Positions 24,379 through 50,827 of a stretch of DNA of 64,000 nucleotides are shown in pieces (position 1 is the stretch's first letter; every line of letters begins with the position of its first letter). The stretch is from an uncultured Chloroflexia bacterium (GTDB taxonomy: Bacteria; Chloroflexota; Dehalococcoidia; DSTF01; JALHUB01), in assembly GCA_963703345.1 (NCBI GenBank), contig OY969814.1, positions 544,001-608,000 of the forward strand, given 5' to 3'. A program made the translations under genes and the position numbers. The notes under the pieces were generated by a model, which saw only the letters and a list, made by a program, of their open reading frames with translations, was not told the DNA's origin and did not search any database.

Positions 24379-24545
24379 TGGAGGGCCGTGAGGGATTCGA
24401 ACCCTCGACTCCCGGATTAAAAGTCCGTTCGCCGTTCGGCCCGCACCCGGCGCTGCTCGCCGAATCTGCGGGAAGGGTCAGATGGCGCTCTGCGAGGTCG
24501 AATCCTGCGGTCTTGCCCGTGTGACATCTGACGACCGGATTGTAC
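24379..24545 (-). repeat. tRNA-Lys 3' fragment (24379-24427) plus type A arm
   Basis: 49 nt identical to the tRNA 3' half; the whole 167 bp aligns without net indel to 45399-45565. Confidence 0.95.
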
Positions 24546-24634
24546 GCAGCAGCGAGGTGAAGCCGCAAGGCGCGCTTCTACTGCGGTGCCAGCCGCTACC
24601 AGGGAGGCTTCTCGAGGTGTAGAATAGGCTCCTT

Positions 24635-24808
24635 ATGGAGCCGCGCATACAGTACGCTAAGACCACCGACGGCGTGAGCATCGCCTTCTGGACGATGGGA
24701 GAAGGCACGCCCTGCGTGCACATGCCAAATCTTCCATACAGCCACATCCGACTGGAGTGGCAAGACCCCGGCTGGCGCCGCTGGTATGAGCGGCTGGCCG
24801 ACAAGAGG
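24635..24808 (+). pseudogene. 5' fragment of a hydrolase-cyclase fusion gene
   Basis: MEPRIQYAKTTDGVSIAFWTMGEG, similar to the N-terminus encoded at 18021. Confidence 0.75.
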
Positions 24809-24829
24809 AATTCGTTCTCGTTCTCGTGT

Positions 24830-24906
24830 GCGCTCGTAGCTCGGCTGGATAGGGCGCAGCCCTGCGGAGGCTGAGGTCATGGGTTCGAATCCCGCCGAGC
24901 GCGCCA
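24830..24906 (+). tRNA. tRNA-Arg(GCG), probably degenerate
   Basis: 77-nt cloverleaf: GCGCTCG/CGAGCGC acceptor, CAGCC-CTGCGGA-GGCTG anticodon arm, TTCGAAT, CCA. G at conserved A14 and an A-C mismatch in the T-stem. Confidence 0.8.
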
Positions 24907-25026
24907 CCTTCGCCCACAATCACCAAGAGCGGCAGGAGCCTTGCCCACGTGGGTCGGCGACCTGCCGTTAAGCCCCTATGGGGTCGTCTCCTGAGGAGAC
25001 GATGGGGGACAGGCAAGGAGGTTTCG

Positions 25027-25326
25027 ATGCGAAAGGTGACACTGCTCTACTGGATAGTGGTAGGCGCGTTCCTAGCGTTCGCGCTGGAGGTCTTCTCCGG
25101 CTTCGTCCTCTGGTTGGCCTTCGAGACCGGCCCCGGCTTTGGCGGACGGCGCGGTCTTGCCGGCGTTGAACCGCCCGGTCGGCAGGAGTTCATGCTCATC
25201 AGCCGCCAGAACTGGCTCAATATCCACGACTGGACGGCGGTGGCGCTGATGGTCATCGTTCTCTTTCACTTGATACTCCACTGGCGGTGGATAGTGAACA
25301 CCAGCCGCCGTCTCTTGGCCGGCTAG
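25027..25326 (+). CDS. DUF4405-like membrane protein
   Basis: FSGFVLW...WLNIHDW...HLILHWRWI; GGAGG RBS. Confidence 0.8.
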   Translation: MRKVTLLYWIVVGAFLAFALEVFSGFVLWLAFETGPGFGGRRGLAGVEPPGRQEFMLISRQNWLNIHDWTAVALMVIVLFHLILHWRWIVNTSRRLLAG

Positions 25327-25334
25327 GGGAAGGT

Positions 25335-25685
25335 GGTGGGGATGGCGTCATGGCCGCCTTCACCTCAGCTCGCCACGCCATCGGGTGCGCTCTCCGCTGC
25401 AATGCGGTGACGGAAGGGACTGGGCTCCAGTTGCATCTTGGCATCCACGCCGGTGACGTCATTCGCGAGGGGAACAACGTCTACGGCGGAGCGGTCAACA
25501 TCGCGGCCCGTATAGCAGGGTCTTCCGCTCCCGGCGAAATCCTGGCATCCGACATCGTGCGCGGTCTGGCTCGCACCTCTGCCAGCGTGTCGTTTGATGA
25601 CCGTGGGGAGCACGTACTAAAGGGTGTTGGTGAGCCGCAGCGGCTGTACGAGGTGCAATGGCACCCCGCATTGGACGAGCCGTGA
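25335..25685 (+). pseudogene. 3' fragment of a class III cyclase gene
   Basis: GDGVMAAF, GIHAGD, VNIAARI, LKGVGEPQRLYEV; no start codon or RBS. Confidence 0.8.
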
Positions 25686-25816: not shown

Positions 25817-25887
25817 TTCAGATTGGGAAAAACCGCCTTGGGTTGCGCGAGCGATTCGAGCCCCTGACTCCCGGATTGGAATTCCGG
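25817..25887 (-). repeat. Degenerate fifth tRNA-Lys 3' fragment
   Basis: GAGCGATTCGAGCCCCTGACTCCCGGATTGGAATTCCGG versus GAGGGATTCGAACCCTCGACTCCCGGATTAAAAGTCCGG; its flank resembles 24358-24378. Confidence 0.65.
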
Positions 25888-26100
25888 CGGTCAAGTGAGA
25901 GAGACCGCCGAAGAATAGACCAGCTACTGGATGCCCCAATCGTATCTGGCCGGCGCTTTCCGAAGATCAACACTCCAATAATTAGGGTGTTATAATCGTC
26001 GAATCCGGCGGTCACGGTTGGCTTTTTGGGGCAGGATTTGAGACGTGGGCTACGAGGAGGTCGCCCCTGAGGAGGGTTTTTGAACCTGGCGAGAGGCTTT

Positions 26101-26294
26101 TGGAGGGCCGTGAGGGATTCGAACCCTCGACTCCCGGATTAAAAGTCAGAGCCTGTACCGCCGGACCTTCAGCTCCGCCCGCAGATTCGAATTCCGCCGT
26201 TTTAGCCGCCTGGCCAGACCGGATTCTCGTCGAGTCCAGTGCTCAGGTTCAGGTGCCCTCCGGAGTACCGGATTCGACGCAGCAATTGTACGCG
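26101..26294 (-). repeat. tRNA-Lys 3' fragment (26101-26147) plus type B arm
   Basis: 47 nt identical to the tRNA; 194 bp collinear with 42632-42825. Confidence 0.95.
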
Positions 26295-26433
26295 AATCTT
26301 CCCACTACTTCAACGATGACTCCGGTGCTCACGTTGGAGCGGTTAGCGAAGAGAGTACCGACCGGAGAGACAGTATCCGTGTCTCTCCAAGCAACTCGGG
26401 CAGGGGCGATGCCAGGTGGGGGGCAGGCCAAGG

Positions 26434-26919
26434 CTATGCCGACCTCTTCCCGTCAGCACTGGGGGCGCTGACGGCCGCTAGCTCACCCGCGATCCTGCCG
26501 GCAGCAGCCGGCAGAGCCCTCTCCACCTCCGGTGTGAACTGCTCGCCGAATGTGTAGGGGTCCTTGACGGCGACCACATATATGAGGAGCTCCTGCGGCA
26601 GCGGCAAGGACAGCTGGCGGGCCAGCTCCAGGGCCAGACGCAGGTTAACGCCGTGGCTTAGCCAGGCGCAACTCCCGCCCAACTCGTCTTCTCGCAGCCG
26701 GCGCACCTGACCGACTGCACTCCCATCACAGATGCTGTCGATGATGACGCCCCGATCGTAGTGAGTCAGAAGCTGAACGGTCTTGAGGCCTGCAACAGCC
26801 GCCTCTACCAGGTCTGCCCTGGGATCGCCGAGCAACTCATGAACACGCCGCGCCACCGAGAGGCCGGTGGCGTCGTCGGAGAGGATGGGGTTGCCCAGTC
26901 CCAGGATCAGTGTTTTCGT
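26434..26919 (-). CDS. Hydrogenase maturation protease (apparent ACG start)
   Basis: The in-frame N-terminus (T)KTLILGLGNPILSDDATG extends the ORF to an ACG at 26919, downstream of GGAGAG. Confidence 0.85.
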   Translation of the reverse strand, partial: TKTLILGLGNPILSDDATGLSVARRVHELLGDPRADLVEAAVAGLKTVQLLTHYDRGVIIDSICDGSAVGQVRRLREDELGGSCAWLSHGVNLRLALELARQLSLPLPQELLIYVVAVKDPYTFGEQFTPEVERALPAAAGRIAGELAAVSAPSADGKRSA

Positions 26920-26920
26920 T

Positions 26921-28408
26921 CTAGTCTCTCCGCAGTTCCTGAACTATCTTCCCCTGAGCATCGTAAATGTTCACTATGAGGGGCATCTCGCCGGGCAATG
27001 CGTGCGTGGCGCAGCCGAAGCAGGGGTCGTACGCGCGGAACGCCATTTCGATGCGGTTGAGGAGCCCCTCGGTGACCACCGTCCCCTTCTTGATCAGCCC
27101 CTGGCTGGCTTTCTTCACCGACATCGCGATGGCACCGTAGTTGTGAGCGGTGCCAACGATGAGGTTGACCTTGCGGGCGACCCCTCTCTCGTCGGCGTGG
27201 TAGTGGTGGATGAGAACACCGCGCGGCGCCTCGACTACGCCTACGCCCTCGCCTGGCGTGGCGGAAGGGATGGTACGAACGTCTGGGCTGGTGATCTCCG
27301 GGTCTGTGGCCAGTTCCACCATGCGCTCGGCGGCGTAGACGAGTTCGACGAGGCGGGCCCAGTGCGTCGCCAAGGTAGCGTGCACCGGCTTGCCCCCCAG
27401 GGTCGCGTACATGCGCTCGTACTCGGCCTGGGCAAGGGGGGTGGCCATCCCATCGGCGGCGTTGAGACGGGCCAAGGGCGCTACGCGGTAGATGCCACTG
27501 TCCTTGCCGTCAACGAGCCCCTGCCAGCCCAGCTTCTTCAAGTAGGTGAACTTGAGGTAGGTCCACGGTTCCACGTGCTCGGCTATGTGCTCCAGGTACT
27601 CCGACGGGTCGAACTTGAGGAACTCCTTCCCCTCCGGGTCCACCACCCGCAGCATGCCGTCGTAGAAGTTCGCTTTGTTGTCGGCGTCCACCAGGCCCAT
27701 GTAGTAGGTCTTGTGGGTGAAGGTATCGGATAGGATCATGTCAAGGTAGGTCTTGTTGGCCAACACCACGTCATCGAGGATCTTGAGAGAGAGCTTGCCG
27801 AATTCCACCGCCGAGCGGGCGATCCCCTCGATCTTGGCCCGCTCCTCCTCAGTGATGGGCTTGCTGACTCCGCCGGGAAGGCCGCAGACTGGGTGAATGT
27901 ACTTCCCCCCGATCATCGCCACCACTTCGTGGCAGAGCGCGAGGTGCTTCAGCACCTCGCCTCCGATCTCCAGGCCTACCTTTTGCACCACGCCGATGAT
28001 GTTTCGCTCAGCCGGAGGAGCGTCAGGACCTACCACAAAGTCAGGACCGCTCAGAGCATAGAAGTGCGTGGCGTGGTCGGCCACGAAGAAGGCGCTATAC
28101 AAGAGCTCTCGGAGCTTCTTGGCCGCCGGAGGGGGGTCTACCTTGAAGACGGCATCCAGAGTCTTGGCGGAGGCGATGTGGTGAGCCGACGGGCACACGC
28201 CGCAGATGCGCGAGGTGATGATCGGCAGGTCTTCGATCTGCCGGCCCTCGCAGAACTTCTCGAATCCCCTCAACTCAGGTACCTGAAAGTAGGCGTTTTC
28301 CACATCCCCCTCCTTGTCGAGGAAGATATCGATGCGGCCATGGCCTTCAAGGCGAGTGATCGGTTCGATGACTATGCGTCTTGTGGTGGGTTCGGAATCA
28401 GTGCTCAT
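26921..28408 (-). CDS. mvhA: [NiFe] hydrogenase large subunit, group 3c-like
   Basis: ITRLEGH, RGFEKF, SRICGVC, EAPRG, RAYDPCFGCATH. Confidence 0.93.
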   Translation of the reverse strand: MSTDSEPTTRRIVIEPITRLEGHGRIDIFLDKEGDVENAYFQVPELRGFEKFCEGRQIEDLPIITSRICGVCPSAHHIASAKTLDAVFKVDPPPAAKKLRELLYSAFFVADHATHFYALSGPDFVVGPDAPPAERNIIGVVQKVGLEIGGEVLKHLALCHEVVAMIGGKYIHPVCGLPGGVSKPITEEERAKIEGIARSAVEFGKLSLKILDDVVLANKTYLDMILSDTFTHKTYYMGLVDADNKANFYDGMLRVVDPEGKEFLKFDPSEYLEHIAEHVEPWTYLKFTYLKKLGWQGLVDGKDSGIYRVAPLARLNAADGMATPLAQAEYERMYATLGGKPVHATLATHWARLVELVYAAERMVELATDPEITSPDVRTIPSATPGEGVGVVEAPRGVLIHHYHADERGVARKVNLIVGTAHNYGAIAMSVKKASQGLIKKGTVVTEGLLNRIEMAFRAYDPCFGCATHALPGEMPLIVNIYDAQGKIVQELRRD

Positions 28409-28452
28409 AGTACCCCTTGCGTCATGACCGACAGAACGCGCTGAGCTCTTGC

Positions 28453-29448
28453 TTATTCAGCCGTTGCCCTGTCAAAAGAAAGGCTCTCAGTCTGACGGAC
28501 CCGTCGCAGCATTGACGCCGGCAGGCCGAAGAGATAGCAGACCCCTAGGAGATCAGGGAGTGTACTCGCTACCCGCTCGATCTCGTCCGGATCCTGAGTA
28601 TCGACGATAGAAGCCAGGGCGCTGAGAAGCTTTCCGCCCTGATCGATCACATTCGGCGGGGGCCCGTAGCAGCCCCGACACGGCATGTTGACCGAAGTGC
28701 AGGGCGCGCCACAGCCGCCCCGCGTGGCCGGGCCGGCGCAGACGATGCCTTGCTCCAGCAGGCAACGCGTCGGGTCCGGCACGATCTCATACGGCCGGTG
28801 GAAGCCCTTGATTCGCTTGTCTTCCTTAATGCGACCGCAGTCGTAGCAGACTGTCCTCTCGGACGCTCCCACGACCGAGCCCGGGGGAGGCAACTGGCCT
28901 GCCATCACGGCTTGCAACACCGCCCAGATTTGCTCCTTCACAGGCGGACAGCCCGGCACGAAGTACTCTACAGGCACCACCTGGTTCAGCGTCCGGACGG
29001 TGTCGTAGAACTCGGGCAGCGTAAGCTCTCCCTCGGGCATCTGATAGCTGAGCTGGGGACGGACGCCGTTTTCGTTGTCTGTGGACGCCGTGTCTCGGTA
29101 GACAAGGTCGAGGATGGACTCCCGGTTGGCGACGTTGGCCAGGCCCGGGATGCCGCCCGTGTGGGCGCAGGCGCCGAAAGCGACTAGCGCCTTCGACTTC
29201 TCTCTTAGCAGGTGCGCCAAGTGCTCCTGCTCAGAGTTTCTGATCGCCCCGTTGAACAGGCAGAGGTCGATGCTCTTGTCCGGCAGCGCCTCCACGTCCT
29301 TGTACTTGAAGTCCATGATGCAGGGCCAGAGAACGATGTCGAAGGCCTCGGCTACGTCCAGGATCTTAGCGTACAGCTCGACGACCGCGATCTCGCAGCC
29401 GCCACAGCTGGCGGCCCAGTACAGAGCTAGTTTCGGCTTCTGACCCAT
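28453..29448 (-). CDS. mvhG: [NiFe] hydrogenase small subunit
   Basis: ASCGGC, FGACA, VPGCPP, CRGCYG. Confidence 0.9.
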   Translation of the reverse strand: MGQKPKLALYWAASCGGCEIAVVELYAKILDVAEAFDIVLWPCIMDFKYKDVEALPDKSIDLCLFNGAIRNSEQEHLAHLLREKSKALVAFGACAHTGGIPGLANVANRESILDLVYRDTASTDNENGVRPQLSYQMPEGELTLPEFYDTVRTLNQVVPVEYFVPGCPPVKEQIWAVLQAVMAGQLPPPGSVVGASERTVCYDCGRIKEDKRIKGFHRPYEIVPDPTRCLLEQGIVCAGPATRGGCGAPCTSVNMPCRGCYGPPPNVIDQGGKLLSALASIVDTQDPDEIERVASTLPDLLGVCYLFGLPASMLRRVRQTESLSFDRATAE

Positions 29449-29466
29449 GACAACCCCCAGGCTTGG

Positions 29467-29907
29467 CTAACGCTGCTCGCTCACTGCTGTTTTCGCATCC
29501 TTCTTTAGCGGGCCCAGTTCCTTTATGGTCTTCGTGAAGTCTGCCACGACCTCGGCAAACCTGGCCCCTTCAGATGCCGAAACCCATTCCAGTCTCAGCC
29601 TCTCGGGCTCGATCCCGAAATCGCTGAGCATCTTTCTCAGCATGTGAATCCTTCTTTGTGCCTTGTAGTTTCCTTCCATATAGTGGCAATCACCCGGGTG
29701 GCAACCCCCGATCAGCACACCATCCACACCCCTAGAGAAGGCCTTCAGAATGAAGGTCGGATCGACCCTGCCACTGCACATCACTCTTATCATCCTCAGG
29801 TTGGGCGGATACTGGATTCTAGAGGTGCCTGCAAGGTCCGCGCCCGCATAGGTGCACCAGTTACAGGCAAAGCCAAGTATCAGGGGCTCAAACCCGTTCC
29901 TATCCAT
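29467..29907 (-). CDS. mvhD: Hydrogenase iron-sulfur subunit delta
   Basis: CNWCTYAGAD, RVMCSGRVD, GCHPGDCHY, WVSASEG. Confidence 0.95.
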   Translation of the reverse strand: MDRNGFEPLILGFACNWCTYAGADLAGTSRIQYPPNLRMIRVMCSGRVDPTFILKAFSRGVDGVLIGGCHPGDCHYMEGNYKAQRRIHMLRKMLSDFGIEPERLRLEWVSASEGARFAEVVADFTKTIKELGPLKKDAKTAVSEQR

Positions 29908-29935
29908 TGTCAGATCCTCTTCTCATATGCTTTCG

Positions 29936-31619
29936 CTACGCTTCCGTCAGAGCCTCTATCTGCGCCAGGATCTCTTGGTCTTCGAAATGATTCATTGTAA
30001 TCGCCCCGGATGGGCAGGCAGCCCCGCAGGTGCCGCATCCTTTGCACACCGCTTCGATGGTGCGGGCAAACGCTTTGCCATTCTCGCTGACCATCTGCAT
30101 GGCGCTATAAGGACAAAGAACGGCGCAGATGCCGCAGCCTCCACAGAGGTCCTCATTGACGGAAGAAGTAATGGCTTCAGGACTCACATGCCCTCTTTTC
30201 ATGGGTACCACTGCTTTGCCGGCGGCGGCGTAAGCCTGGAACACGGCTTCGGACACTTCGACTGGCCATCTGGCCGAGCCACATATGTAGATGCCATCCG
30301 TGGCAAATTCCACGGGCTGCAGTTTCAGGTGGGCCTCCAGGAAGAAGCCCTCCGAACTGAGGGGAACCTTGAGCATCCTGGAGATCCCCGCGTTGTCGCT
30401 CCGCGGAACAAGGGGTGTGGTCAGCACAACCATATCCGACGGAAGCTCCACCAATTTGCCTATCAACTGGTGGTAGACCCTGACACCCTTGACCCCGCCG
30501 TTCGCAACAACCTCGGGCGGGCTCCCCAGGCTGTACCTCACGAACCTGACACCCAGTTCCATCGCCTTTCGATAGTAGTCCTCGAACTCCACCCCATAGG
30601 CCATGATATCGCGATGGAGGATCCAGACGTTCGCCTCGGGGATCATTCTCCTTGATCAGCACAGCATTCTTGATCGCCGTCAGACAGCAGAACCTGCCGC
30701 AGTAGGGCCTTTCGGGGACGCGAGCGCCGACGCAGTTGATCATGACGACGTTCTTAGCCTCTACTGTATGCTGTTTCAGTCGTTCTTCCAGCTCGAGCTG
30801 AGTGAGCACGCCGTCCGTCTCACCGTAGCCGTACTGACCTGCCGGTTTGAGCTCCTCGGCGCCCACAGCGACTATGATGGTGCCGACTCTGAGCTTGCTT
30901 CCCTCCTCGCCTTGCTCCAAAATGACGTCGAAATTGCCTATGAAGCCCTTTACTTCCTTGACCTCTGTGGAGAGATGAGCCGTTATACGCTCATGGTTCC
31001 TCACCTGGTCAATGAGGGGCCCGATCAGTTCTCTGGCCTCTTTGTTGGTTGCGAAGAGTCGGTTTACATCAAGTAGCAGGCCACCGAGCTGTGCCTGCTT
31101 TTCCACCAGGTGGACCTCAAAACCCTGATTGGCCAGGTTCAGGGCTGCGGTCATTCCGGCCACGCCGGACCCGATTACTAGAGAAGCCGGAGTGACTTCA
31201 ATCTCGATCTCTTCCAGCGGCTTCAGTAGCCTGGCCTTCGCCACCCCCATTCTAACGAGGTCTTTGGCCTTTTCGGTGGCTTCCGTGGGGAGGGTCATGT
31301 GCACCCACGAGCATTGGTCCCTTATGTTGACGAACTCGAAGAGATACTTGTTCAGGCCCGCTTCCTGACAGGCAGACCTGAACAGTGCCTCGTGGGTTCT
31401 GGGGGTACAAGATGCCACTATGACACGGTTCAGGTCGTTTTCTTGAATCTTCTTCTTTATGGACGAGATGCCTTCTTCTGAACAGGTGTAGAGGTTGTGC
31501 TCGGCATGCGCTACATTGGGCAGACTCTTCGCGTACTCCACCACTTGGGGCACGTCGACATAGCCGCCGATGTTCCTGCCACAGTGACACACAAAGACGC
31601 CAATCCGGGTATCAGGCAT
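29936..31619 (-). CDS. hdrA: Heterodisulfide reductase subunit A-like protein (split by a +1 frameshift at about 30640)
   Basis: VFVCHCG, SCTPRTHE, NIRDQCSWVH, GSGVAG; C-terminal FLEAHLKLQPV and 2x[4Fe-4S] motifs lie in the second frame. Confidence 0.85.
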
Positions 31620-34326
31620 GCTCAGCACCCCCTGCTAGAACTTCAGCCGCTCGAGCCGCTGACCCGGATGCTTGAACCACCGAGTCCGGGATATCCCGAG
31701 GGCTGTGAGCATAGCCGCAGGCGAAGATCCCGGCCCTGCTGCTGTCCAGCGGGTGGGACAGGCGGTCCGGGATTTCCACGAAGCCGTGTTCATCTAAGGT
31801 TATGCCCAGCCTGGCCGCTAACTCCCGGACGCCCACAGACGGTACCAAGGCTTGGGCGAGGATGACCAGCTCGGTCTCGAAGGTCTTCGTTTCACGCGTG
31901 GTGGTATCCTCGTACAAGATGATCGGGTTGCCGTTCTCGGCAACGTCAATCCTTGCGGGCCGGCCTCTGACATATGTGACGTTATACTCATCTCTGGCAC
32001 GGGCGATGTACTCCTGGAATCGCTTGCCCACTGCCCTGAGGTCCATATAGAAGATGGTGGACTTCGTCCCAGGGTGGTGTTCGTACGCCAGTATGGCCTC
32101 CTTTGTGGCATGCATGCAGCACACGCTTGAGCAGTAGGCCTTGTGCCTGAAGTCTCGGGAGCCGACGCACTGGATGAATGCTATGTTCTTGGCCAGTTTG
32201 CCGTCAGAGGGGCGCATGAGCTCGCCGGCCGTAGGGCCAGAGGCCGAGGTAAGCCTCTCGTATTCCATGGCGGTGATTACGTTCTCTATCCTTCCATAGC
32301 CGTACTCGCCGAGCTTAGAAACGTCGTAGAGGTCTAAGCCAGTCGCGAGGATAACTGCGCCAACGTTGACGTCCAGGTACCGCTCTTCCTGGTCATAGCG
32401 TATGGCCTTGGCCTGGCAGGTCTTCTCACACAGCCTGCAGTCGGAGCAGACGGCGCAGTTTAGACAACGGTTCGCTTCCTCGATGGCCGCCTCCGTGGTG
32501 AGAGCGAGCTCTATCTCTTGAAAGTCCCTCACCCTCTCTTCAGGGGCTCTGAGGCGCAGCTCGACCCTCTCCCGCCGCTCGATCTCCCTCTCAGGGAGAG
32601 GCACGGGAGCCTCAGCCTCCTTCTCCCTCCCCTCCCGCAGGTCGAGACCGTTTATGAACCTGTCTATAGATATGGCCGCCTCGTTGCCTTGGGCGACAGC
32701 CTCTATGATCGATGCCGGGCCCCTGACGATGTCACCACCGGCGAAGACCCCGGGAAGGTTCGTCTCCAGCGTGACTTCATCCGCCCCGATTGTCCCCCGG
32801 GCAGTCTTCTCCAGACCCTCGAAGGCTGACAGGTCTGACCTTTGGCCAATGGCGATGATCAGCGTGTCCCCGGCTAGGGATGGCCCGGAACTCTCTGAGA
32901 ACTTGGGGGCGAACCTGCCACCCTCGTCGTAAACCGAGGTGCAGAGAACTGTTTCCAGCCCTGTCATCCGCCCATTCTCGCTCTGCACCATCTTCGGGCC
33001 CAGTGAACCATGGATGATGACGCCCTCTTCCTCCGCCTCCTCGATCTCCCAGCTATGGGCGGGCATCCTGTCCCTCGAGGTGAGGTCCCTCGTCTCAAGG
33101 CAGACAAGGTGGACCTCCTTCGCCCCCAGCCTCAGGGCGATCCTGGCACAGTCTATGCCGACGTTCCCGCCGCCGATAACTATCGCCCTCTGCCCGAAGC
33201 CTTCCACCTTCCCGCTCGCCTTCGCTTCCTGCAAGAAGGGGAGGCCGTAGAGCACGCCTTTGGCCTCCGCGCCCTCCACCGGGAGCCGCGCTGCGTCCTG
33301 GCAACCTACGGCTACGAAGACCGCCTTGTAGTCTCTCTTGAGTTGATCGAAGGTGATGTCCTTGCCAACTCTCGTGTTTGTCTTCACTTCCACGCCGCTC
33401 GCCAGCACACGGTCCACGTCGTAGCTGGCGATCTCTGTGGGGATGCGATAGTCGGGGATGCAGCCCGTGACCATGCCACCGGCCTTCCCCGACGCCTCGA
33501 AGACGGTGACCGGGTAGCCCATCTCCAACAGTCTCAGAGCGCAGGTGAGGCCTGAGGGCCCTGCTCCAACAACTGCCACCTTCTCCTCGCGCGTGGGCTT
33601 TAGGACCTGTGGAGGCGCCTCGCCGTTTTCCCTCGCCCAGTCTGAGATGAACCTCTTCAGCGCTCGGATGGAAACGGGCTCATCCACGTCCCGGCGGTTG
33701 CACTGATCTTCGCAAGGGTGGTGGCAGGCCCTGCCGCATATTGCTGGGAAGGGGAGCGTTTCGCGTACGACATCCAGGGCCTCTTGGAACTTTCCCTTGG
33801 AGGTCAGGGCAACATAGCCCTGAACCCTCGTGCCGGCCGGGCAGCCATCTCTGCAGGGGGAGATGCCTCTTCTATCGATGACGTAGAGGTTGGGAATCGC
33901 TTGGGCGAAGGGCTTGTAGATGGCCTTTCTCTTGCCCATGCCCTGGTTGAACTCGCTGAGGATCTCAACCGGACATTGCTCTGCACACTCTCCGCAGCCG
34001 GTGCATTTGGTCTCATCGATGTAGCGGGGCTTCATCAGTATCCTGGCCTGGAACCTCCCCAGCTCTCCCTCCACCGCCGCGACCTCGGAGTAGCTCAGCA
34101 CCTTGACGTTCTCGTGGCGGTAGCACTCGATCATCTTGGGGGCGAGGATGCACATGGCGCAGTCGTTGGTGGGGAAGGTCTTGTCCAACTGAGCCATTCT
34201 CCCGCCGATTGAGGGAGACTGCTCCACCAGATAGACTTGAAAGCCCATGTTGGCCAGGTCGATGGACGCCTGGATGCCGGCAATGCCTCCGCCGACTACC
34301 AGCACTGAGTTATTGTTGTCGCTCAT
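31612..34326 (-). CDS. HdrA-like protein with inserted GltD-like NAD(P)H oxidoreductase domain (HdrL type)
   Basis: LDKTFPTNDCAMC; PCRDGCP, ICGRACHHPCE, GAGPSG, GGGNVG; QCVGSR, CSSVCC. Confidence 0.88.
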   Translation of the reverse strand: MSDNNNSVLVVGGGIAGIQASIDLANMGFQVYLVEQSPSIGGRMAQLDKTFPTNDCAMCILAPKMIECYRHENVKVLSYSEVAAVEGELGRFQARILMKPRYIDETKCTGCGECAEQCPVEILSEFNQGMGKRKAIYKPFAQAIPNLYVIDRRGISPCRDGCPAGTRVQGYVALTSKGKFQEALDVVRETLPFPAICGRACHHPCEDQCNRRDVDEPVSIRALKRFISDWARENGEAPPQVLKPTREEKVAVVGAGPSGLTCALRLLEMGYPVTVFEASGKAGGMVTGCIPDYRIPTEIASYDVDRVLASGVEVKTNTRVGKDITFDQLKRDYKAVFVAVGCQDAARLPVEGAEAKGVLYGLPFLQEAKASGKVEGFGQRAIVIGGGNVGIDCARIALRLGAKEVHLVCLETRDLTSRDRMPAHSWEIEEAEEEGVIIHGSLGPKMVQSENGRMTGLETVLCTSVYDEGGRFAPKFSESSGPSLAGDTLIIAIGQRSDLSAFEGLEKTARGTIGADEVTLETNLPGVFAGGDIVRGPASIIEAVAQGNEAAISIDRFINGLDLREGREKEAEAPVPLPEREIERRERVELRLRAPEERVRDFQEIELALTTEAAIEEANRCLNCAVCSDCRLCEKTCQAKAIRYDQEERYLDVNVGAVILATGLDLYDVSKLGEYGYGRIENVITAMEYERLTSASGPTAGELMRPSDGKLAKNIAFIQCVGSRDFRHKAYCSSVCCMHATKEAILAYEHHPGTKSTIFYMDLRAVGKRFQEYIARARDEYNVTYVRGRPARIDVAENGNPIILYEDTTTRETKTFETELVILAQALVPSVGVRELAARLGITLDEHGFVEIPDRLSHPLDSSRAGIFACGYAHSPRDIPDSVVQASGSAARAAEVLAGGAEHA

Positions 34327-37917: not shown

Positions 37918-37927
37918 CGGCACCCTC

Positions 37928-40021: not shown

Positions 40022-40138
40022 GTTTTCGGCCCTTCTGTGGCCACTTACTCTATCGACTTAGTCATTATCATATTCACCCAAGTTCTCGTCGCGCCTCCTC
40101 TAACACGAAGAGAGCTTATGGGGTTGGGTAGTAGGGGA

Positions 40139-43106: not shown

Positions 43107-44399
43107 TTGATCTTGAAACCTTCCTTCTTGCGGATGAGAAGGCTTTACCGTCTTCTCATTGCCGGTAAGTATCAACCCTATGTCTTCGAGGAAGCTACCC
43201 CGGACCTTCCGAATAGTCTCGGTGACATCGGGCTCTATCTCCACATCCCTTTCTGCAAACAGATCTGCCCATTCTGTCCTTACAATAAGGTCTTGCTCTA
43301 CGGTCAGGATGTGGACGCATACGCAGAAGCAGTCAAGAAAGAAGTCGAAATGCACCGGGAGAGGCTGGAGGCCTCAACCGTCACTTCACTATATGTTGGG
43401 GGAGGCACTCCATTGGCCTCCCCAAAGCAACTCCTGGACCTGATAGCTTTCTTGACGCGCTCTTTCCGAATCGGCGCAGAAATTGGAGTGGAGGTTCACC
43501 CGAGTGATGCCAGTGTGGAAAACCTCTCAGCCCTTAGAAGGAGTGGAGTGAATCTCTTAAGCCTTGGCGTTCAAAGCTTCCAAGACGATCTCCTGCAAAG
43601 GATCTCCCGACCATATGACGCGGAGAACGCCAAGGAGGCCCTGGCCAATGCTATGAGTGCTGACTTCGACTCGGTCGATGTGGACCTTATGTTTGGCCTA
43701 CCCGGCGAGACCGAGGACCAACTCGAGCATGATGTGGAGTACGCCTTCCAAGCGGGCATCGGGCAGTTGTCGGCGTATCCCTTGATTGTATTCTCATTTA
43801 CGAAGATGCTGGAGATTCTGGCCAGGAGTGGCACTCGGAAGCCAAGCTGGTGGCAAGAGAGGAAGATGCTTCAGATCATCGAGGAGCTTTCGAAAACCTA
43901 CGGCTATGAAAGAACCTCGATCTGGACATGGACGAAGAAAGAGAAGGCGCAGTATACCTCAGTTACCAGGCAGAACTTCGTGGGCTTCGGGGCTGGAGCG
44001 GCTAGCCGCTTCAGCAACGTTTTCTATTCCAACACCTGTTCGGTGAGCGAGTACGTAAAGGCCGTTGCCGCTAGAAAGCTGCCAATCGCTCTTTGCACCT
44101 CCCTGGACGAAAAGGACCAGATAGCCTGGTGGCTGTTTTGGGCTGCCTACAGGATGTCGATTGGCAGGCAAGAGTTCAAACGTGTGTTCAATCGCGAGCT
44201 AAATGGGAAGTTTAGGCTCTATCTGAAGGCGCTCCAATACTTGGGGATTCTAAAGGAGGAGGGCACCGAGTACCGGCTGACTGACAATGGTGGCTTCCTC
44301 TTTCACTTGGTGGAACAGGGCTATTCGCTGGACTTCCTCGATGGAATGTGGGGTACCCTTTCTTCAGAAGCTTGGCCGAAGAGGTTAGTGCTAGGTTGA
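43107..44399 (+). CDS. HemN-like radical SAM protein
   Basis: LYLHIPFCKQICPFCPY, YVGGGTP, SLGVQSF, DLMFGLPG. Confidence 0.9.
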   Translation: MILKPSFLRMRRLYRLLIAGKYQPYVFEEATPDLPNSLGDIGLYLHIPFCKQICPFCPYNKVLLYGQDVDAYAEAVKKEVEMHRERLEASTVTSLYVGGGTPLASPKQLLDLIAFLTRSFRIGAEIGVEVHPSDASVENLSALRRSGVNLLSLGVQSFQDDLLQRISRPYDAENAKEALANAMSADFDSVDVDLMFGLPGETEDQLEHDVEYAFQAGIGQLSAYPLIVFSFTKMLEILARSGTRKPSWWQERKMLQIIEELSKTYGYERTSIWTWTKKEKAQYTSVTRQNFVGFGAGAASRFSNVFYSNTCSVSEYVKAVAARKLPIALCTSLDEKDQIAWWLFWAAYRMSIGRQEFKRVFNRELNGKFRLYLKALQYLGILKEEGTEYRLTDNGGFLFHLVEQGYSLDFLDGMWGTLSSEAWPKRLVLG

Positions 44400-44438
44400 G
44401 GATCAGCTTTCGAATGGGCGAAAGGGCCCTCCCCGATC

Positions 44439-44621
44439 ATGCAATACGAGGAAGATGGCTTCAGAGAGATCCAACGGAGCTCCACTAAGTTTGGCGCGCT
44501 GGGCAGCCGAAGCGGATGGTGGGGCGTCAGCAGCGCGGCGGAGGCCTTCCTGGACCAGCTAGTCACCTGGCGAGAACTCGGCTTTAACATGTGTTGGCAG
44601 GCGATTCTTCAGAGGACCTAG
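44439..44621 (+). pseudogene. DNA photolyase internal fragment
   Basis: GWWGVSSAAEAFLDQLVTWRELGFNMC. Confidence 0.6.
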
Positions 44622-44788
44622 ATGCGGAAAATGGAGCCAGGGAGCAAACCTGCCGCTCCTTCTGCATGACATTCTCCTGCAAATGCCGGTTGAAGTTGTC
44701 CGCGTCACTGGATAATCCCATCTCCGGACCTCATAATAGAAGTCTACGGTGGCAGATTAGCCAAGAACGCCAGAAAGAAGGAGTAATC

Positions 44789-45187
44789 ATGAAAGGATTC
44801 AACACAAATATAGAAAAGGACACGCTGGAGAATAGAGACTTTCGCAGGGTGCTGTACACCGGCAGGCACAGCCAATTGGTACTGATGAGCCTTCGACCGA
44901 AAGAAGAAATCGGTATGGAAACCCATCTAGACAATGATCAGTTCTTTCGTTTTGAAAAGGGTGAGGGGAAGTGCATCATAGACGGTAATGAATATGCCCT
45001 GAGGGATGGGTCGGTAATTGTTGTGCCAGCTAGCGCCGAGCACAACATAATCAACACCTCCGCCAACCAGGATTTGAAGCTCTATACAATCTATTCCCCG
45101 GCCCACCATAAAGATGGGGTAGTGAGGTCGACTAAAGCAGAGGCCGAAACCGATGCGCCTGAATTTGATGGTGTAACCACCGAATAG
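44789..45187 (+). CDS. Cupin-domain protein
   Basis: FRRVLYTG, SQLVLM, EEIGMETH, HNIIN, LKLYTIYSP; AAGGAG RBS. Confidence 0.9.
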   Translation: MKGFNTNIEKDTLENRDFRRVLYTGRHSQLVLMSLRPKEEIGMETHLDNDQFFRFEKGEGKCIIDGNEYALRDGSVIVVPASAEHNIINTSANQDLKLYTIYSPAHHKDGVVRSTKAEAETDAPEFDGVTTE

Positions 45188-45398
45188 GCAACAATTCCGC
45201 CAAATATGGCAAGCGTGCTATCCGGACGCCGTAACGTCCACTCTTAGGAATTGATGACGCCGCCCTCGGGCACTGGGAGAGAACCGTGACTGATCTGGAT
45301 CACCGACTGCCGGACTGGAAATCCGGCACTCCAATCAAAAGAGGCAGGCGAAGAAGAGTCCACATTGGAGGGCCGAAATCGAATCTGAAAGAGGGCTC

Positions 45399-45565
45399 TG
45401 GAGGGCCGTGAGGGATTCGAACCCTCGACTCCCGGATTAAAAGTCCGCGAGCCATTCGGCCCACGCTCGACGCTGTTCGCCGAATCTGCGGGGAAGGTCA
45501 GATGGCGCTCTGCGAGATCGAATCCCGCGGTCTTGCCCGCGTGGCATCTGACCACCGGATTGTAC
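45399..45565 (-). repeat. tRNA-Lys 3' fragment (45399-45447) plus type A arm
   Basis: Collinear with 24379-24545. Confidence 0.95.
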
Positions 45566-45740
45566 CTTGACGAGGCGTCAACTACAAGCCGTAATACTCC
45601 TGGCTGCTTCGATGTGGAGATGCCTCCTTCTCCCATCGATGATGGACACGATCCTTCGTGCATCTTCGAGGGCGAAACGCTGTGATGCCCGATAACAGGT
45701 ACTTTACGAAACCGTCCCAGGACATGTCAACTGAAGCTCA

Positions 45741-45773: not shown

Positions 45774-46448
45774 ATGATGTCAGCATCAACAGTGATTCCC
45801 GAATCAGTTTCGCGGACAGAGCGAAAGCGCGCCCGAACCCGCGCTGCCCTTATCGCCTCGGCTCGCCGTTTGTTCGCCCAGGTCGGTTTCGAGGCGACCA
45901 CCATTGCGGCGATCGCCGAGTCCGCTGACCTCGGCTTCGGCACCTTCTATCGCTACTTTCCCGACAAGGAGGCGATCCTCAATGCTGTGCTCGAAATCGG
46001 CCGCTCGGAACTTGACAAGGCGCTGACTCACCCCGACAACGAGCGGGCCGAGCCGGCAGAAGCCCTGCGCAGGCTCACGATGCGTTTTGCGCAGGCGGCA
46101 GAACGCAACTACGACGTGATGGCCTTGGGGTTTCGGATGGCCGTCGGGGGCGAGGGTGTCGGCGAGCCCATCCCACCCGACCTCAACAAAGGAGCGCTGC
46201 CGATCTTCTTTCTTCTCGGCGAACGCATCCGCCACATTATTGAGCGCGGCGTCACGGAGGGTGTGTTCGCATGTCCTGACCCGCGGCTCGCATCGCGTTT
46301 CATCACCAGCGCGCACGTTCCTTTCCTTACCCCATACACGAAGCACGACGGACGGAAGATGATCGAAGCGCTCTGCGACCTTGAACTGAGAGCGCTTGGC
46401 GGAGCGAGTGCAGCGTCGCCGCAGCGGACCAAAAGGAGAAACCGGTGA
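45774..46448 (+). CDS. TetR/AcrR family regulator
   Basis: GFEATTIAAIAESADLGFGTFYRYFPDKEAI. Confidence 0.93.
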   Translation: MMSASTVIPESVSRTERKRARTRAALIASARRLFAQVGFEATTIAAIAESADLGFGTFYRYFPDKEAILNAVLEIGRSELDKALTHPDNERAEPAEALRRLTMRFAQAAERNYDVMALGFRMAVGGEGVGEPIPPDLNKGALPIFFLLGERIRHIIERGVTEGVFACPDPRLASRFITSAHVPFLTPYTKHDGRKMIEALCDLELRALGGASAASPQRTKRRNR

Positions 46449-48346
46449 CCCCCATTAAGCTCGAGGACGAACTTGCTCTTTCTGAGAGCAGCTGGCGCCG
46501 ACGCATCATCACCCTCGCCGTGTTGCTGTTCGGAGTGGGCGTCGTCGCCGTCGCGATCTACTACGTCGCATTTAGGAACAGCGCTACCACAGCTACCCGT
46601 TCCACGGAGGAGATCCCTGTAGTCAGAGCAACGATCAGCCAGACGCTGAGCATCTCGGGCGTCGCCGATGCTCAGCTCAACAGCAATCTCACCTTCCAGG
46701 CCACGGGAAAGATCGCCGAAGTCAACGTCAAGGTGGGCGATGCCGTGCGGCAGGGCGACGTCCTCGCCAGCATCGAATCCGACGATCTGGTCAACGCCGT
46801 GTCGCAGGCGCAGGCAAATCAGCGCGCCGCTCAGCTCAAGCTCGACGATCTACTCGGCGGCTCGACCGCAGCCGAAATCGCCGCTGCCGAACAGGCGCTG
46901 GTCTCCGCACAGTCGAATCTCACCAAGGCAGAGAACGATTACGACACGCTGGTGGGCAGTGGCGCTGCAGCCGATGTCGCTGCCGCTCAACAAGCGGTAA
47001 GCGTGTCCGAAGCGCAGCTAGCGAGCGCGAGGAGCGCGCGCGCTAAGCTCGACGACACGCCCAGCGACGCTGACAAGGCAGCCGCCGAAGCAGGCGTGGC
47101 CGCGGCGCAATCCGCCCTCACCGCGGCTCAGAACAGTTCAGCCAGCGCTCAGAACACCCTGACCGCCGCCGATGCCTCGCTCAAGAGCGCGGAAACCAGC
47201 TACTGCGCCACCGATCCTGCGCCGGCGTTTTGCACCACGGCCGTCTCACCCATCTCCTCAGCCGACGCCACACTGATGACTGCTGCCCTTGGCGGTGCGC
47301 ATGCCACACTTGCATCGGGTGTCATCGCTGCAAACAGCGCTTTCCTCAATTCGCAGAACAGCGCGGACTCCGCGGCGTCGGCCGTAACCTCCGCACGGCA
47401 AGCGCTGAGATCCGCACAGGAGAAGCTCAATACCGTGAACGACGGACCGACGAGCGATGACGTTGCCGCTGCCGACGCTGCAGTAACTTCCGCCGAATCG
47501 GCCCTGACCGCCGCGCAGCAGAAGCTCGCGACTGTACAGGGCGGCACCGGTGCGCAACAATCCACGCTCCAGGCGGCCGTCCTCAGCGCCCAGGCCGCCG
47601 TCGATGCGGCCCAGGCGAAAGATGATGAAGCGCACCAGGGCGCGACAGCGAACGCCATCGCGCAGGCGCGCCAGGCCGTCGAAACCGCCGGTCTCGTAGT
47701 CGAAGCGGCGCAGATCCGCCGCCAAAACGCCCAGATCATCGCGCCCTTCGACGGTGTCGTTGCGGCCGTAAACGCTCACGTCGGAGAGATGGCCGGTGCG
47801 GCCGGTGGCTCTTCGACCGCCGCGCCTATCGTCTTGCTCACGCCGAACCTGCTTCGTTTCAAGATGAACGTGCAGGAGACCGACTACACAAACATCAAAC
47901 TCGACCAGACGGGCATGGTTGTCTTCGATGCACTCCCGGGCAGGCCGTTTGCGTTCACCATCACATCGATCAGTTCTGCCGCCATTACGGAGAGCGGGGT
48001 CGTCACGTACGAGGTCGATGCCTCTCTGACGATCCCACCCGATTCTCCCTCCCCTGCAGCCGGTATGAACGGGAACGGGGTCATCACCATCGATTCGAAG
48101 CCGAACGTTCTCGTCGTCCCGGCGCGCGCCATCAAGCGTCGCGGCGCCGATCAGATCGTCTCGGTCAAGCGGGCGAACGGCAACGTCGAGGAACAGGTGA
48201 TCACGACTGGTGTCAGCGACGTCAACAACGTGGAGGTGCTCTCCGGCCTGAGTGAAGGCGACGTGGTCGAGGCCGTCACACTGACGGCGGGGAAGGCTGG
48301 CGTCGCGGCGACGCCTCAACCCACCATGCCGAGCGGCCTGAGGTAG
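46445..48346 (+). CDS. MacA-like efflux adaptor with long Ala-rich coiled coil
   Basis: TM segment, VKVGDAVRQGDVLA, IAPFDGVV, GLSEGD. Confidence 0.88.
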   Translation: MTPIKLEDELALSESSWRRRIITLAVLLFGVGVVAVAIYYVAFRNSATTATRSTEEIPVVRATISQTLSISGVADAQLNSNLTFQATGKIAEVNVKVGDAVRQGDVLASIESDDLVNAVSQAQANQRAAQLKLDDLLGGSTAAEIAAAEQALVSAQSNLTKAENDYDTLVGSGAAADVAAAQQAVSVSEAQLASARSARAKLDDTPSDADKAAAEAGVAAAQSALTAAQNSSASAQNTLTAADASLKSAETSYCATDPAPAFCTTAVSPISSADATLMTAALGGAHATLASGVIAANSAFLNSQNSADSAASAVTSARQALRSAQEKLNTVNDGPTSDDVAAADAAVTSAESALTAAQQKLATVQGGTGAQQSTLQAAVLSAQAAVDAAQAKDDEAHQGATANAIAQARQAVETAGLVVEAAQIRRQNAQIIAPFDGVVAAVNAHVGEMAGAAGGSSTAAPIVLLTPNLLRFKMNVQETDYTNIKLDQTGMVVFDALPGRPFAFTITSISSAAITESGVVTYEVDASLTIPPDSPSPAAGMNGNGVITIDSKPNVLVVPARAIKRRGADQIVSVKRANGNVEEQVITTGVSDVNNVEVLSGLSEGDVVEAVTLTAGKAGVAATPQPTMPSGLR

Positions 48347-48348
48347 CG

Positions 48349-49131
48349 ATGATCCGGTTGAAGGGCATCTCGAAGGTCTACAAGCTCGGCTCTGAGAGTG
48401 TCCACGCTCTTCGCGGCATCGACCTGGAGATCGAGGAGGGCGAGTTCCTGGCGATCATGGGGCCCTCCGGCTCGGGCAAGTCAACGCTCATGAACATCAT
48501 CGGCTGCCTCGATCGCCCGACCGACGGCACGTACGAGCTCGACGGCGTAAACATAGGCAAGCTCAACGACTCACAGCTCGCGACGGTCCGTAATCGGCGT
48601 CTGGGGTTCGTGTTTCAGTCCTTCAACCTGCTCCCGCGCCTCGACGCTGTCAGTCAGGTGGCGATGCCACTCTCGTATCGAGGCGTCACGAACCGAAAGC
48701 AGGTCGCGAGGGTCGCGCTCAGGCTCGTCGGCCTCCAGGACCGCATGCATCATCGGCCCACGCAGCTCTCCGGCGGCCAGCAGCAGCGCGTCGCTATCGC
48801 GCGCGCGCTCGTCGGCAGTCCGGCGGTGATCCTCGCCGATGAGCCGACAGGCGCACTGGACACGAAGACCAGCCACGATGTGATGGAGATCTTCCGCAAG
48901 CTCAACGAAGAGCGCGGCGTCACGATCGCCTTCGTCACCCACGAGCACGACGTCGCGGCGTATACGCGGCGCATCGTCTCGCTGCTTGATGGCGAGATCG
49001 TCAGCGACGCGCCGAACGTCCCCGCGTACCGCCAGACTGCGGAGGCGATCTCGCACCTATCGCCACAGGCGCGACAGACCTCCACGACAACGCCGGCCGA
49101 GCGCCGGATCCTCGGAGCGACTGACGCATGA
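48349..49131 (+). CDS. ABC transporter ATP-binding protein (MacB/LolD type)
   Basis: GPSGSGKST, LSGGQQQR, ADEPTG. Confidence 0.95.
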   Translation: MIRLKGISKVYKLGSESVHALRGIDLEIEEGEFLAIMGPSGSGKSTLMNIIGCLDRPTDGTYELDGVNIGKLNDSQLATVRNRRLGFVFQSFNLLPRLDAVSQVAMPLSYRGVTNRKQVARVALRLVGLQDRMHHRPTQLSGGQQQRVAIARALVGSPAVILADEPTGALDTKTSHDVMEIFRKLNEERGVTIAFVTHEHDVAAYTRRIVSLLDGEIVSDAPNVPAYRQTAEAISHLSPQARQTSTTTPAERRILGATDA

Positions 49132-50456
49132 GCCCGAGCGAAGTCGTCATGACGGCGTTGATCGCGCTGCGCAGCAACATCCTGCGCACTCTGCTCACAA
49201 TGCTCGGCATCATCATCGGCATCAGCGCTGTTATCGTGCTGACGGCTGCGGGCCAGGGCGCGCAGAAGGGCGTTGCTGACCGCATCAAGGGCATCGGCAG
49301 CAACCTGATGTTCATTCAACCGGGCAACGGCAAGACAACCACGGGACTGTGGGTCCCCGGGCAGGGGAGCACTGCACTCTTCCTAGATGACGCCCGCGCG
49401 ATCGACGACGCCCGGATCGACGGCATCGATGCCGTCGCCGCGCAAGGCACGGCGCCCGCACCCGCCATGCCCTGGGGCGCCACCGCGATATACCGCGGCC
49501 AGAATACCAGTACGACGCTGATTGGCACGGAGACGAGCTACCAGTACGTCCGCGACTTCTACGTCGCCGAAGGCCGCTTCATCACAGAAGACGACATCAA
49601 TAAGAAGGCGCTCGTCGTCGTTCTAGGCGCGGAGGTCAAACAACAGCTTTTCGGAGACAAGGACCCTATCGGCGAGAACGTGCGCATAACCGTCGGTCCG
49701 GGGAACTACGCTGTCGGCTTCACCTTCACCGTCGTCGGTGTGATGGAGGAGAAAGGCTCGACCTCATCGACTGACCAGGACAACGTCGTGATCACGCCCC
49801 TCCCGTCCTTTCAGGCGCGCGTGCCCCTAGTCCGCAACCCACGCGGCACCACCGTCAGCCAGGTGAACATCAAGGTGACCAACCCCTCCAAGATCCCTCA
49901 GATTAAGCTGGCTATTACAGACATCCTCCGCAAGCGCCACAACCTGGCGGAAGGGACCGATAACGACTTCCTGATCCAGTCCCAGAGCGATGTCCTAGCG
50001 ACCGCCACCGCGGTCGACCGCACCCTCAGCGTGCTGCTCGTGTCGATCGCACTGATCTCGTTGATCGTCGGCGGCATCGGCATCATGAACATCATGCTCG
50101 TGTCGGTGAGCGAGCGAACGCGCGAGATTGGAATCCGCAAGGCGGTTGGGGCAAAGCGCCGCGACATCCTCCTGCAATTCATGATCGAAGCGCTGGTCGT
50201 GACATTGTTCGGGGGCCTGCTGGGGGTTGCCGTGGGCATCGGCATTACGCAGATCCTACAGCACGACTTCAACTACCACATCAATCTGCTGATCACGACA
50301 CTCAATGTCAGCGTGAGCGGAGGCACGTACGTCATCACACCGCGATGGATCTTCGCCGGTCTGGCCATGTCTGCTGTTACCGGGCTGGTCTTCGGCGTCT
50401 ACCCCGCCTGGCGCGCCGCGAGACTCGACCCGATCGAGGCGCTCCGGCGAGAGTGA
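49128..50456 (+). CDS. MacB-like ABC permease
   Basis: LLTMLGIIIG, VGGIGIMNIMLVSV, ERTREIGIRKAVGA. Confidence 0.95.
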   Translation: MSPSEVVMTALIALRSNILRTLLTMLGIIIGISAVIVLTAAGQGAQKGVADRIKGIGSNLMFIQPGNGKTTTGLWVPGQGSTALFLDDARAIDDARIDGIDAVAAQGTAPAPAMPWGATAIYRGQNTSTTLIGTETSYQYVRDFYVAEGRFITEDDINKKALVVVLGAEVKQQLFGDKDPIGENVRITVGPGNYAVGFTFTVVGVMEEKGSTSSTDQDNVVITPLPSFQARVPLVRNPRGTTVSQVNIKVTNPSKIPQIKLAITDILRKRHNLAEGTDNDFLIQSQSDVLATATAVDRTLSVLLVSIALISLIVGGIGIMNIMLVSVSERTREIGIRKAVGAKRRDILLQFMIEALVVTLFGGLLGVAVGIGITQILQHDFNYHINLLITTLNVSVSGGTYVITPRWIFAGLAMSAVTGLVFGVYPAWRAARLDPIEALRRE

Positions 50457-50827
50457 GCGTCAACTTCCCAACAGCGCCCGGATTCCATTCGCCGCGATCT
50501 GGATGAATTGCGCCTTATTCACAAGCATGGAGCGGGAATCGAGATCGGGTGCCCGCACGACGCACTCTTGGTTTGTGGCGCGGAGGCGGTCCGTGTGACT
50601 GGTGGATTGGAAGTCCGGGGGTCGATTGAGAGAAATCCGCGACGAACGAGCATCTGCGGACGCGGAATCGTATCTGAGCGACGACTCTCGAAGGTCAATG
50701 GCCCCAAAATCCTGCCCCAGAATCTTCGAATCCGGTGGTCAGGGTTGGCTTTTTCGGGCGAGAGTTCGAGGGGTAAGCGATGAAGAGGTGATGTTGAAAG
50801 CGGTTTTCGAATCTGAGAAGGGGGCTC

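Follow-up and report, generated by a model that had tools for sequence, protein, structure and literature searches.

How does a row of gene cassettes without a recombinase of their own come to stand behind one tRNA gene, and what do their conserved ends record? The question is raised by a stretch of 64,000 nt (the window) within the 2.28-Mb single-contig genome of an uncultured Chloroflexia bacterium, labelled G000 here, in which four cassettes lie between an intact tRNA-Lys(TTT) gene (50828..50902, minus strand; ARAGORN, Rfam) and four copies of the 3' half of that tRNA. We propose that these integrase-less cassettes are probably deleted derivatives of two related lineages of tyrosine-integrase elements, inserted with the aid of helpers. 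Judged from its sequence, the array is best read as a set of putatively cis-mobilizable islands accreted at a tRNA.

The tRNA-Lys gene is the target (attB/attL), and its anticodon is bracketed in the site map by two inverted 12-bp half-sites (50856-50867 and 50871-50882). Near-perfect copies of its 3' half, the cores, begin at 24379, 26101, 42632 and 45399 and are all on the minus strand: the most distal intact copy at 24379..24427, and those at 26101..26147, 42632..42678 (one substitution) and 45399..45447. A fifth, decayed 3' half at 25838 (25817..25886, minus strand; 76% identical to the copy at 24358-24427, p 0.001) bears a short flank similar to an R0-type arm. Direct repeats of the tRNA end, of attL and attR type, bound the cassettes, which hold neither integrase nor transfer gene, as in a cis-mobilizable element (CIME). 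Whole-genome searches with PF00589 and PF07508 placed no tyrosine or large serine recombinase in the window, all six tyrosine and three large serine recombinase matches of G000 lying outside it, and Pfam found no transfer gene among 49 selected open reading frames of the 226 in the window. Because an R0-type right arm occupies 24315..24378, the array extends leftward past the interval described in the first-pass annotation of this DNA.

The same annotation had sorted the left arms of the cassettes into two types in A-B-B-A order, and this observation was reproduced. The type A arms of cassettes 1 (24428..24568) and 4 (45448..45587) are identical at 102 of 118 positions (86%; 24428-24545 against 45448-45565), and the type B arms of cassettes 2 (26148..26313) and 3 (42679..42825) at 121 of 147 (82%; 26148-26294 against 42679-42825), with equal lengths within each type and 57-62% identity between types. 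Of 18 genomes, 13 carry arm A and 7 carry arm B. The tRNA-Lys arrays of another family of the order have different arms, with only weak A, C or G matches.

Each left arm of the window also carries a promoter-like site. At the end of the cassette 4 arm, TTGTAG and TACAAT (45559-45564) stand 17 nt apart on the minus strand and are directed toward the core; the cassette 1 arm has a promoter-like -10 TACAAT at 24539-24544 (minus strand), the cassette 2 arm a promoter-like site at 26313-26285 (minus strand), and the cassette 3 arm a -10-like TACAAT at 42816-42821. In this last case the arm is followed by a perfect 36-bp palindrome (42834-42869) that covers the expected -35 position and has similar matches elsewhere in the genome. 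More widely, scoring was possible for 46 of the 53 A arms, of which 41 have a core-directed TTG 17-18 nt ahead of a -10 hexamer; the corresponding figures for the 18 B arms are 12 scorable and 11 with such a site. The promoter spacer is 41% identical among A arms, against 86% for the arm.

The right arms had been paired as cassette 1 with 4 and cassette 2 with 3. The motifs and the 102-bp spacing are there as described, and the informative sites and a tree favour this pairing, but the description was incomplete. All four right arms are homologous, are longer than the intervals first assigned to them, and are built as stacks of 120-141-bp units that align with one another and with the unit that ends in the tRNA. 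The arms of cassettes 1 (25865..26100) and 4 (50596..50827, two tandem units) are of a type designated M-alpha. Those of cassettes 2 and 3 are M-beta: the former (42296..42631) consists of two units (42396-42631) with a third, decayed unit further left, and the latter (45304..45398) lacks one 141-bp unit. Core-like sites were located at 25866-25892, 45305-45331 and 50597-50623 in cassettes 1, 3 and 4, and every right arm begins at a second anticodon-like palindrome, whose distance to the core palindrome is 263, 263, 122 and 259 bp in cassettes 1 to 4. Cassette 2 has, at 42531 (101 bp from the core), the right-arm block that had been attributed to cassettes 1 and 4, and cassette 4 also bears the block that had been attributed to cassettes 2 and 3. 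Pairwise alignment over the originally described intervals did not cleanly yield the expected clusters: the right arms of cassettes 2 and 4 agree at 77 of 100 positions (77%), those of 1 and 4 at 71 of 101 (70%), 2 and 3 at 57 of 81 (70%), 1 and 2 at 64 of 100 (64%), 3 and 4 at 49 of 80 (61%), and 1 and 3 at 41 of 80 (51%). The cassette 1 arm has diverged close to the core. The last 60 bp pair cassette 2 with 3 (50/58; next best 44/59), and among 95 gap-free four-way columns ten group 1 with 4 and 2 with 3, three group 1 with 3 and 2 with 4, and two group 1 with 2 and 3 with 4. Likewise, a tree of ten right arms (that of cassette 3 was excluded as too short) separates an alpha group (the window's cassettes 1 and 4 together with a G006 arm) from a beta group (cassette 2 and six others) with support of 100/99.

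We also considered whether a fresh 263-bp unit is inserted at the tRNA every time. A tRNA half ahead of the second core-like site can be recognised in cassette 1 and in cassette 3, each at p 0.001, and is unclear in cassette 2 (p 0.15) and the tRNA-nearest cassette 4 (p 0.06), and for this reason the idea was rejected as a general rule; it may hold at 1909k of G000. The inner unit of the cassette 2 right arm terminates in a decayed but recognisable tRNA 3' half (p 0.005), and none was recognisable in the inner units of right arms 1 and 4.

What could two lineages of enzyme recognise in these arms? The recurrence of the motif CCGGAT/ATCCGG, noticed at the outset, is real: a pattern derived from it, drawn up after the arms had been seen, matches the window 23 times, against 9.4 +/- 2.9 in shuffles, and 15 of the 23 matches lie within or just beside arms. 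The arms hold copies of the 12-bp anticodon half-sites that end in either GTC or CTC. Within each of the four window cassettes, both ends have the same variant. It is GTC in cassette 1 (a pair at 24501 and 24530 on the left, sites at 25881 and 26002 on the right) and cassette 4 (an inverted pair at 45521 and 45550; 50612 and 50729), and mainly CTC in cassette 2 (a pair at 26233 and 26263; 42412 and 42534) and cassette 3 (an inverted pair at 42764 and 42794 with one GTC-type site at 42721; 45320). When all arms were scored, the endings having been noticed first, GTC-type sites were found in 53 of 53 A arms (three of which have CTC too) and CTC-type sites in 18 of 18 B arms (six with GTC too); GTC is present in three of three M-alpha right arms, with CTC in none, and CTC in 13 of 13 M-beta arms. 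The counts lack independence, given the homology of arms within a type.

Candidate enzymes are found in relatives. At one G003 locus (G003:C19), an R0 arm stands next to a tRNA-Lys and leads into genes for a tyrosine integrase, a Replic_Relax protein and a coupling-protein-like product (below the Pfam cut-off); an A arm closes the element at a distance of 24.7 kb. This complete element speaks, for the A and R0 arms, for descent from an integrative and conjugative or mobilizable element (ICE or IME) with matching attachment arms. G010 has a second tyrosine integrase, 45% identical to that of G003 and on a separate branch of a quick tree, and its gene is preceded by a copy of the right arm of the window, proximal half only; the region upstream of this gene shares 13 B-only 9-mers and no A-only 9-mers with the left arms. 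Arms upstream of the G003-type integrase, or R0 arms of the same lineage, have GTC in four of four typed cases, and those of the G010 type have CTC in four of four. For the B and M arms we infer descent from an integrase element through motif sharing only. Both integrases (G003-type, L042:3168-4214; G010-type, L085:155-1246) are XerC-like, score under the family cut-offs and have SAM-like and catalytic domains only by Pfam. Of 16 genome loci with related integrases, 7 have a tRNA-Lys(TTT) upstream, and the records that carry these integrases are mostly titled Dehalococcoidia or other Chloroflexota. There is no close copy of either candidate in G000, where the best matches (47% and 42%) are located at tRNA-Pro; in viral contigs, three patterns gave no match and no relative of the G010 integrase was confirmed. 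Truncated integrase genes adjoin arms at other loci, as 43-aa N-terminal pieces (L111, L176) and a C-terminal piece (L072), which points to deletion derivatives. Two related integrases with corresponding site variants upstream, beside tRNA-Lys-type right arms, thus lend partial substance to the early suggestion that two recombinase variants had been used. A separate 7.7-kb contig (L056, G002:C61) has both ends inside a Y6-type integrase gene and includes a junction at which a G arm and a C arm flank the core; it may represent a third lineage with tRNA-Lys as its target, in circular or tandem form.

Do the cassettes move, and do their ends travel together? A block in a tRNA-Sec island of G003 (G003:C4) matches cassette 2 at 94.9% identity over 15,604 bp and again has B and M-beta ends. 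The upstream flank of tRNA-Lys is conserved (71-89%) across 12 loci, and in the first 1.5 kb or less behind the gene these loci have no match of more than 200 bp in common. Similarly, a 1.2-kb cargo of another G000 array recurs at 80-93% identity in six relatives, at differing array positions. The displaced cassette 2 speaks for the proposal that each cassette was inserted as a unit with a matched attP; however, the right arm consists of several stacked att-like units, so that one matched attP for each cassette is too simple a picture. For the cross-genome count, eight duplicate loci were removed and cassettes whose second end lay off the contig or more than 26 kb away were excluded, leaving 45 complete cassettes in 34 cargo clusters and 35 cluster-label rows. 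The A cassettes end on the right in T (6), G (1), R0 (1), M (4) or an untyped end (14), and the B cassettes in M (5), R0 (1) or an untyped end (3). M is commoner with B (5 of 9) than with A (4 of 26; p 0.03, for rows that are non-independent); alpha pairs with A in three of three cases, and beta pairs with B five to six times and with A twice. Matched arms do not hold up as a general rule, since among the 34 clusters A meets several unrelated right-end types or none, and M-beta twice. The pairing of left and right arms across genomes is a trend and not a rule.

We propose the following scheme. The cassettes would have been inserted one after another by integrases of helper elements not found in G000, with crossover at the anticodon stem-loop. 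The 12-bp repeats may be core-like binding sites for XerC-like integrases, for which Pfam gives no separate arm-binding domain; the G003-type integrase would belong to lineage A and the G010-type to lineage B. The outward promoter of the left arm would be Pcirc-like and is predicted to drive the integrase once the element is circularised. The 120-141-bp units could be scars of repeated integration and internal deletion, and the mismatched ends in other genomes may stem from later recombination among repeats.

A number of observations weigh against this scheme. The GTC/CTC pattern is post hoc, having been devised with the sequences already in view; most M-beta arms score a GTC-type core half in reverse and a few have a forward GTC site, and integrases of the G003 clade in distant genomes (L208, L209, L211, L207) have CTC or mixed sites. 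The arm of the G003 integrase shares no A-specific 9-mers, A-specific 9-mers common with M-alpha or R0 arms were mostly not found, and in the M-alpha arms B-only 9-mers exceed A-only ones (4 vs 0, 6 vs 2 and 7 vs 0). Among 93 genomes of the order, the G010-type integrase occurs in a single genome, with no second copy and with the left arm absent from its contig, and a complete B element with integrase was not found. Overall right-arm identity on the originally described intervals puts cassettes 2 and 4 together at the top. Fisher tests of the pairing of A/B with alpha/beta gave p 0.06-0.17; M-beta closes two of the A cassettes, and R0 closes one partial B cassette. Arm trees had been put forward as the means of confirming the pairing, and although the alpha group of cassettes 1 and 4 emerged at 100/99, the A/B label on the right-arm tree needs two changes and clusters no better than shuffles (193 and 175 of 500). 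Finally, the scheme draws on run X6, where the cassette 3 end, a longer right arm, core and B arm follow one another on a contig, but this join is a single contig at a depth of 5.3 and is as compatible with a tandem neighbour as with a circle; when four runs were compared with 40500-52500 of the window, no att joint was present among the joints listed.

Of the other explanations, the least unlikely is a single interchangeable system, in which left arm and core suffice, right arms are dispensable relics, and the A-B-B-A order reflects shared ancestry of the four cassettes and not two integrase specificities. A typed right arm is missing in 14 of 26 A and 3 of 9 B clusters (some short remnants fell below thresholds), mismatched ends do occur, the tRNA-Val arrays of G000 have a conserved arm on just one side, and the right arm of cassette 2 matches its G003 copy at only 148 of 205 positions, as against 95% for the cargo. 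Nevertheless, we consider it unlikely: the right arms have kept their 12-bp sites and spacing at an overall identity of 53-75%, M is enriched with B in the non-independent rows given above, and the site variants agree at both ends of all four window cassettes.

A more active arrangement is distinctly unlikely in our estimation. The cassettes might belong to a two-channel, helper-driven system in which two integrase lineages share one tRNA target and a three-base difference in the core-like sites on both ends addresses the cassettes; the second core-like site of the right arm would be a regenerated site for docking or cargo exchange, and the left arm would supply a promoter. In such a system the cassettes would not decay but persist, and be shuffled, as satellites free of an integrase.

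Could the array instead capture cargo in the manner of an integron? Integrons are arrays of promoter-associated cargo units with repeated recombination sites and core-like accessory integrase-binding repeats. By analogy, the second core-like site would regenerate a docking site with its own spacer, cargo would be exchanged there, and the arm promoter would express the neighbouring cassette. In favour of this, most copies of the second site are complete inverted pairs around a 3-bp centre, with spacers that recur in groups, the same cargo occupies differing array positions in six relatives, and the radical SAM gene of cassette 3 adjoins an A arm fragment in G012. Against this, no resident recombinase lies next to the array, so that the adjoining integrase gene of an integron is missing from the window; truncated integrase genes by the arms are expected of deletion derivatives; and three of the four window cargoes are transcribed against the direction of the arm promoter. 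Unlike in integrons, moreover, the sites are tRNA-derived, the cargo reaches 16 kb and stands in both orientations, and no covarying attC-like hairpin was found, the inverted repeats showing hardly any compensatory change among sequences too similar for a strong test. We regard this explanation as very unlikely. The notion that left arm and tRNA 3' half form a small structured RNA gene with its own promoter, A and B being two RNA families, is scarcely credible, for although the promoter-like sites are conserved and type A can adopt a tRNA-like fold without a D arm (29.5 bits against the Rfam tRNA model), two window copies fold no better than shuffles (z 0.01 and -0.27), strand preference is not clear, both-side changes affect 3 of 39 pairs in A (two in the tRNA part) and 0 of 51 in B, with power limited by high identity, and the conserved motifs are repeats common to integrase upstream regions; a tRNA-like or other structured non-coding RNA with a covarying fold was dropped as a candidate on the folding, covariation and strand checks.

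Derivation of the cassettes from two integrase lineages can be set beside known systems. CIMEs, according to a review, have lost integration and transfer genes, keep attL and attR, and are stacked at the 3' end of a tRNA; elements with different integrases at one target form chimeric internal att sites, and an ICE-IME tandem lies at tRNA-Lys in Streptococcus agalactiae (PMC5704250). The present cassettes are likewise integrase-less islands with att ends stacked at a tRNA 3' end. They differ from those CIMEs in phylum, in arms that recur in many copies across a family, in two end classes told apart by a 12-bp variant, and in right arms that are att-like stacks with a second core-like site; any cis-mobilization of the present cassettes is putative. 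Two papers on Dehalococcoides, which deal with ssrA islands and tRNA-fragment arrays, describe tandem islands at ssrA that are bounded by repeats of the 3' end of a structural RNA with extra conserved flanking nucleotides, carry respiratory cargo, include 15 islands without an integration module that were proposed as CIMEs, and have a DsiB protein that was compared with CcrB (PMC3146451, PMC2764846). The resemblance lies in the phylum Chloroflexota, in tandem islands bounded by an RNA 3' end, in conserved nucleotides flanking the repeat, in the want of an integration module in some, and in respiratory cargo; the target is the tRNA-Lys anticodon here and the ssrA T-loop there, the candidate enzymes are XerC-like tyrosine integrases and not DsiB, and the conserved arms measure 120-260 bp as against a 15-bp motif. 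DsiB is a serine recombinase. The ssrA target and dsiB module that define such islands are not found in the array, whose target is tRNA-Lys and which has no recombinase-domain gene. A preprint reports tRNA-integrated Dehalococcoides elements with XerCD-type recombinases. In ICEclc, whose target is also a tRNA, Pcirc is an outward promoter at the end opposite the integrase, upstream of which it comes to lie on circularisation (PMC5812530, a review). An outward promoter opposite the integrase end is matched here at the level of sequence, and the geometry is seen in the G003 element; unlike Pcirc, the promoter here is a predicted one and is kept in cassettes that lack an integrase gene. The accretion of integrase-less islands at a tRNA is thus already described; what is new in detail is the site code of the two lineages, the stacking of units in the right arm and the retention of the promoter. 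No published account of these arms was found in the literature searched, mostly outside subscription journals.

The array maps a likely movement of accessory metabolism, without a recombinase of its own, among uncultured Chloroflexota: a 16-kb hydrogenase-heterodisulfide reductase block and an efflux-type transporter. The scheme predicts integrase specificity, in that two XerC-like integrases with a common attB would be distinguished by short core-like repeats. If true, this would provide a natural pair of orthogonal recombinases and would account for the conservation of arms in islands that lack an integrase.

The cargo differs from cassette to cassette. That of cassette 1 (24635..25685, plus strand) comprises gene fragments, a cyclase tail (25287-25685), a tRNA-Arg(GCG) at 24830-24906 and a DUF4405 gene; the extra tRNA differs at six positions from the genome's other copy, and it and the DUF4405 gene sit between the start of a broken gene and the cyclase tail. 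Cassette 2 (26434..41863, minus strand) encodes a SufS desulfurase, an Rrf2 regulator, HdrABC-like proteins, an MvhADG-like [NiFe] hydrogenase and a maturation protease; by eye, three near-direct repeats of ~18-20 bp upstream of the SufS gene (41930-41995) are possibly regulator sites. Cassette 3 (43107..45187, plus strand) encodes a HemN-like radical SAM protein and a cupin, and cassette 4 (45774..50456, plus strand; Pfam) a TetR regulator, an HlyD-type membrane fusion protein, an ABC ATPase and a MacB/FtsX permease. The HlyD-ABC-MacB operon of cassette 4 (46445-50456) has a paralog outside the array (57922-61866), with stretches ~70-75% identical. To the left, 21550-24378 is likely an older additional unit, with a broken beta-propeller repeat gene, a phosphoesterase gene and the R0 arm at its end; next to a decayed core at 1910.8k of G000 lies a copy, 78% identical, of the cyclase gene that occupies 18143-21631. 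The G000 block 1903103-1910792 was at one stage taken for a non-tRNA insertion with a 7-bp duplication, an interpretation that was dropped when L175 showed its flank to be a decayed tRNA-Lys core.

Finally, related arrangements occur elsewhere. Eleven 3' fragments of tRNA-Val(TAC) lie in G000 (G000:C1 1252833-1258635, 1919362-1921910, 1026456, 1981943 and 2126189), mostly with one conserved arm and unrelated DNA opposite, in arrays of 0.8-2.5-kb units; the genome also has four tRNA-Pro and seven tRNA-Gly(CCC) fragments. At G000:C1 83750-83917 the anticodon stem is the point of fusion between a full A arm and another tRNA-like 3' half, one with its own complementary T-stem. A unit of ~26-30 bp adjoining the 12-bp site is tandemly amplified several-fold in some right arms (L151:9800-9880, L117:5580-5800), and a hairpin of ~20 nt is inserted in the T-loop of many tRNA-Lys cores (L062:10988, L067:1419, G017:C18 15753 and many metagenome loci).

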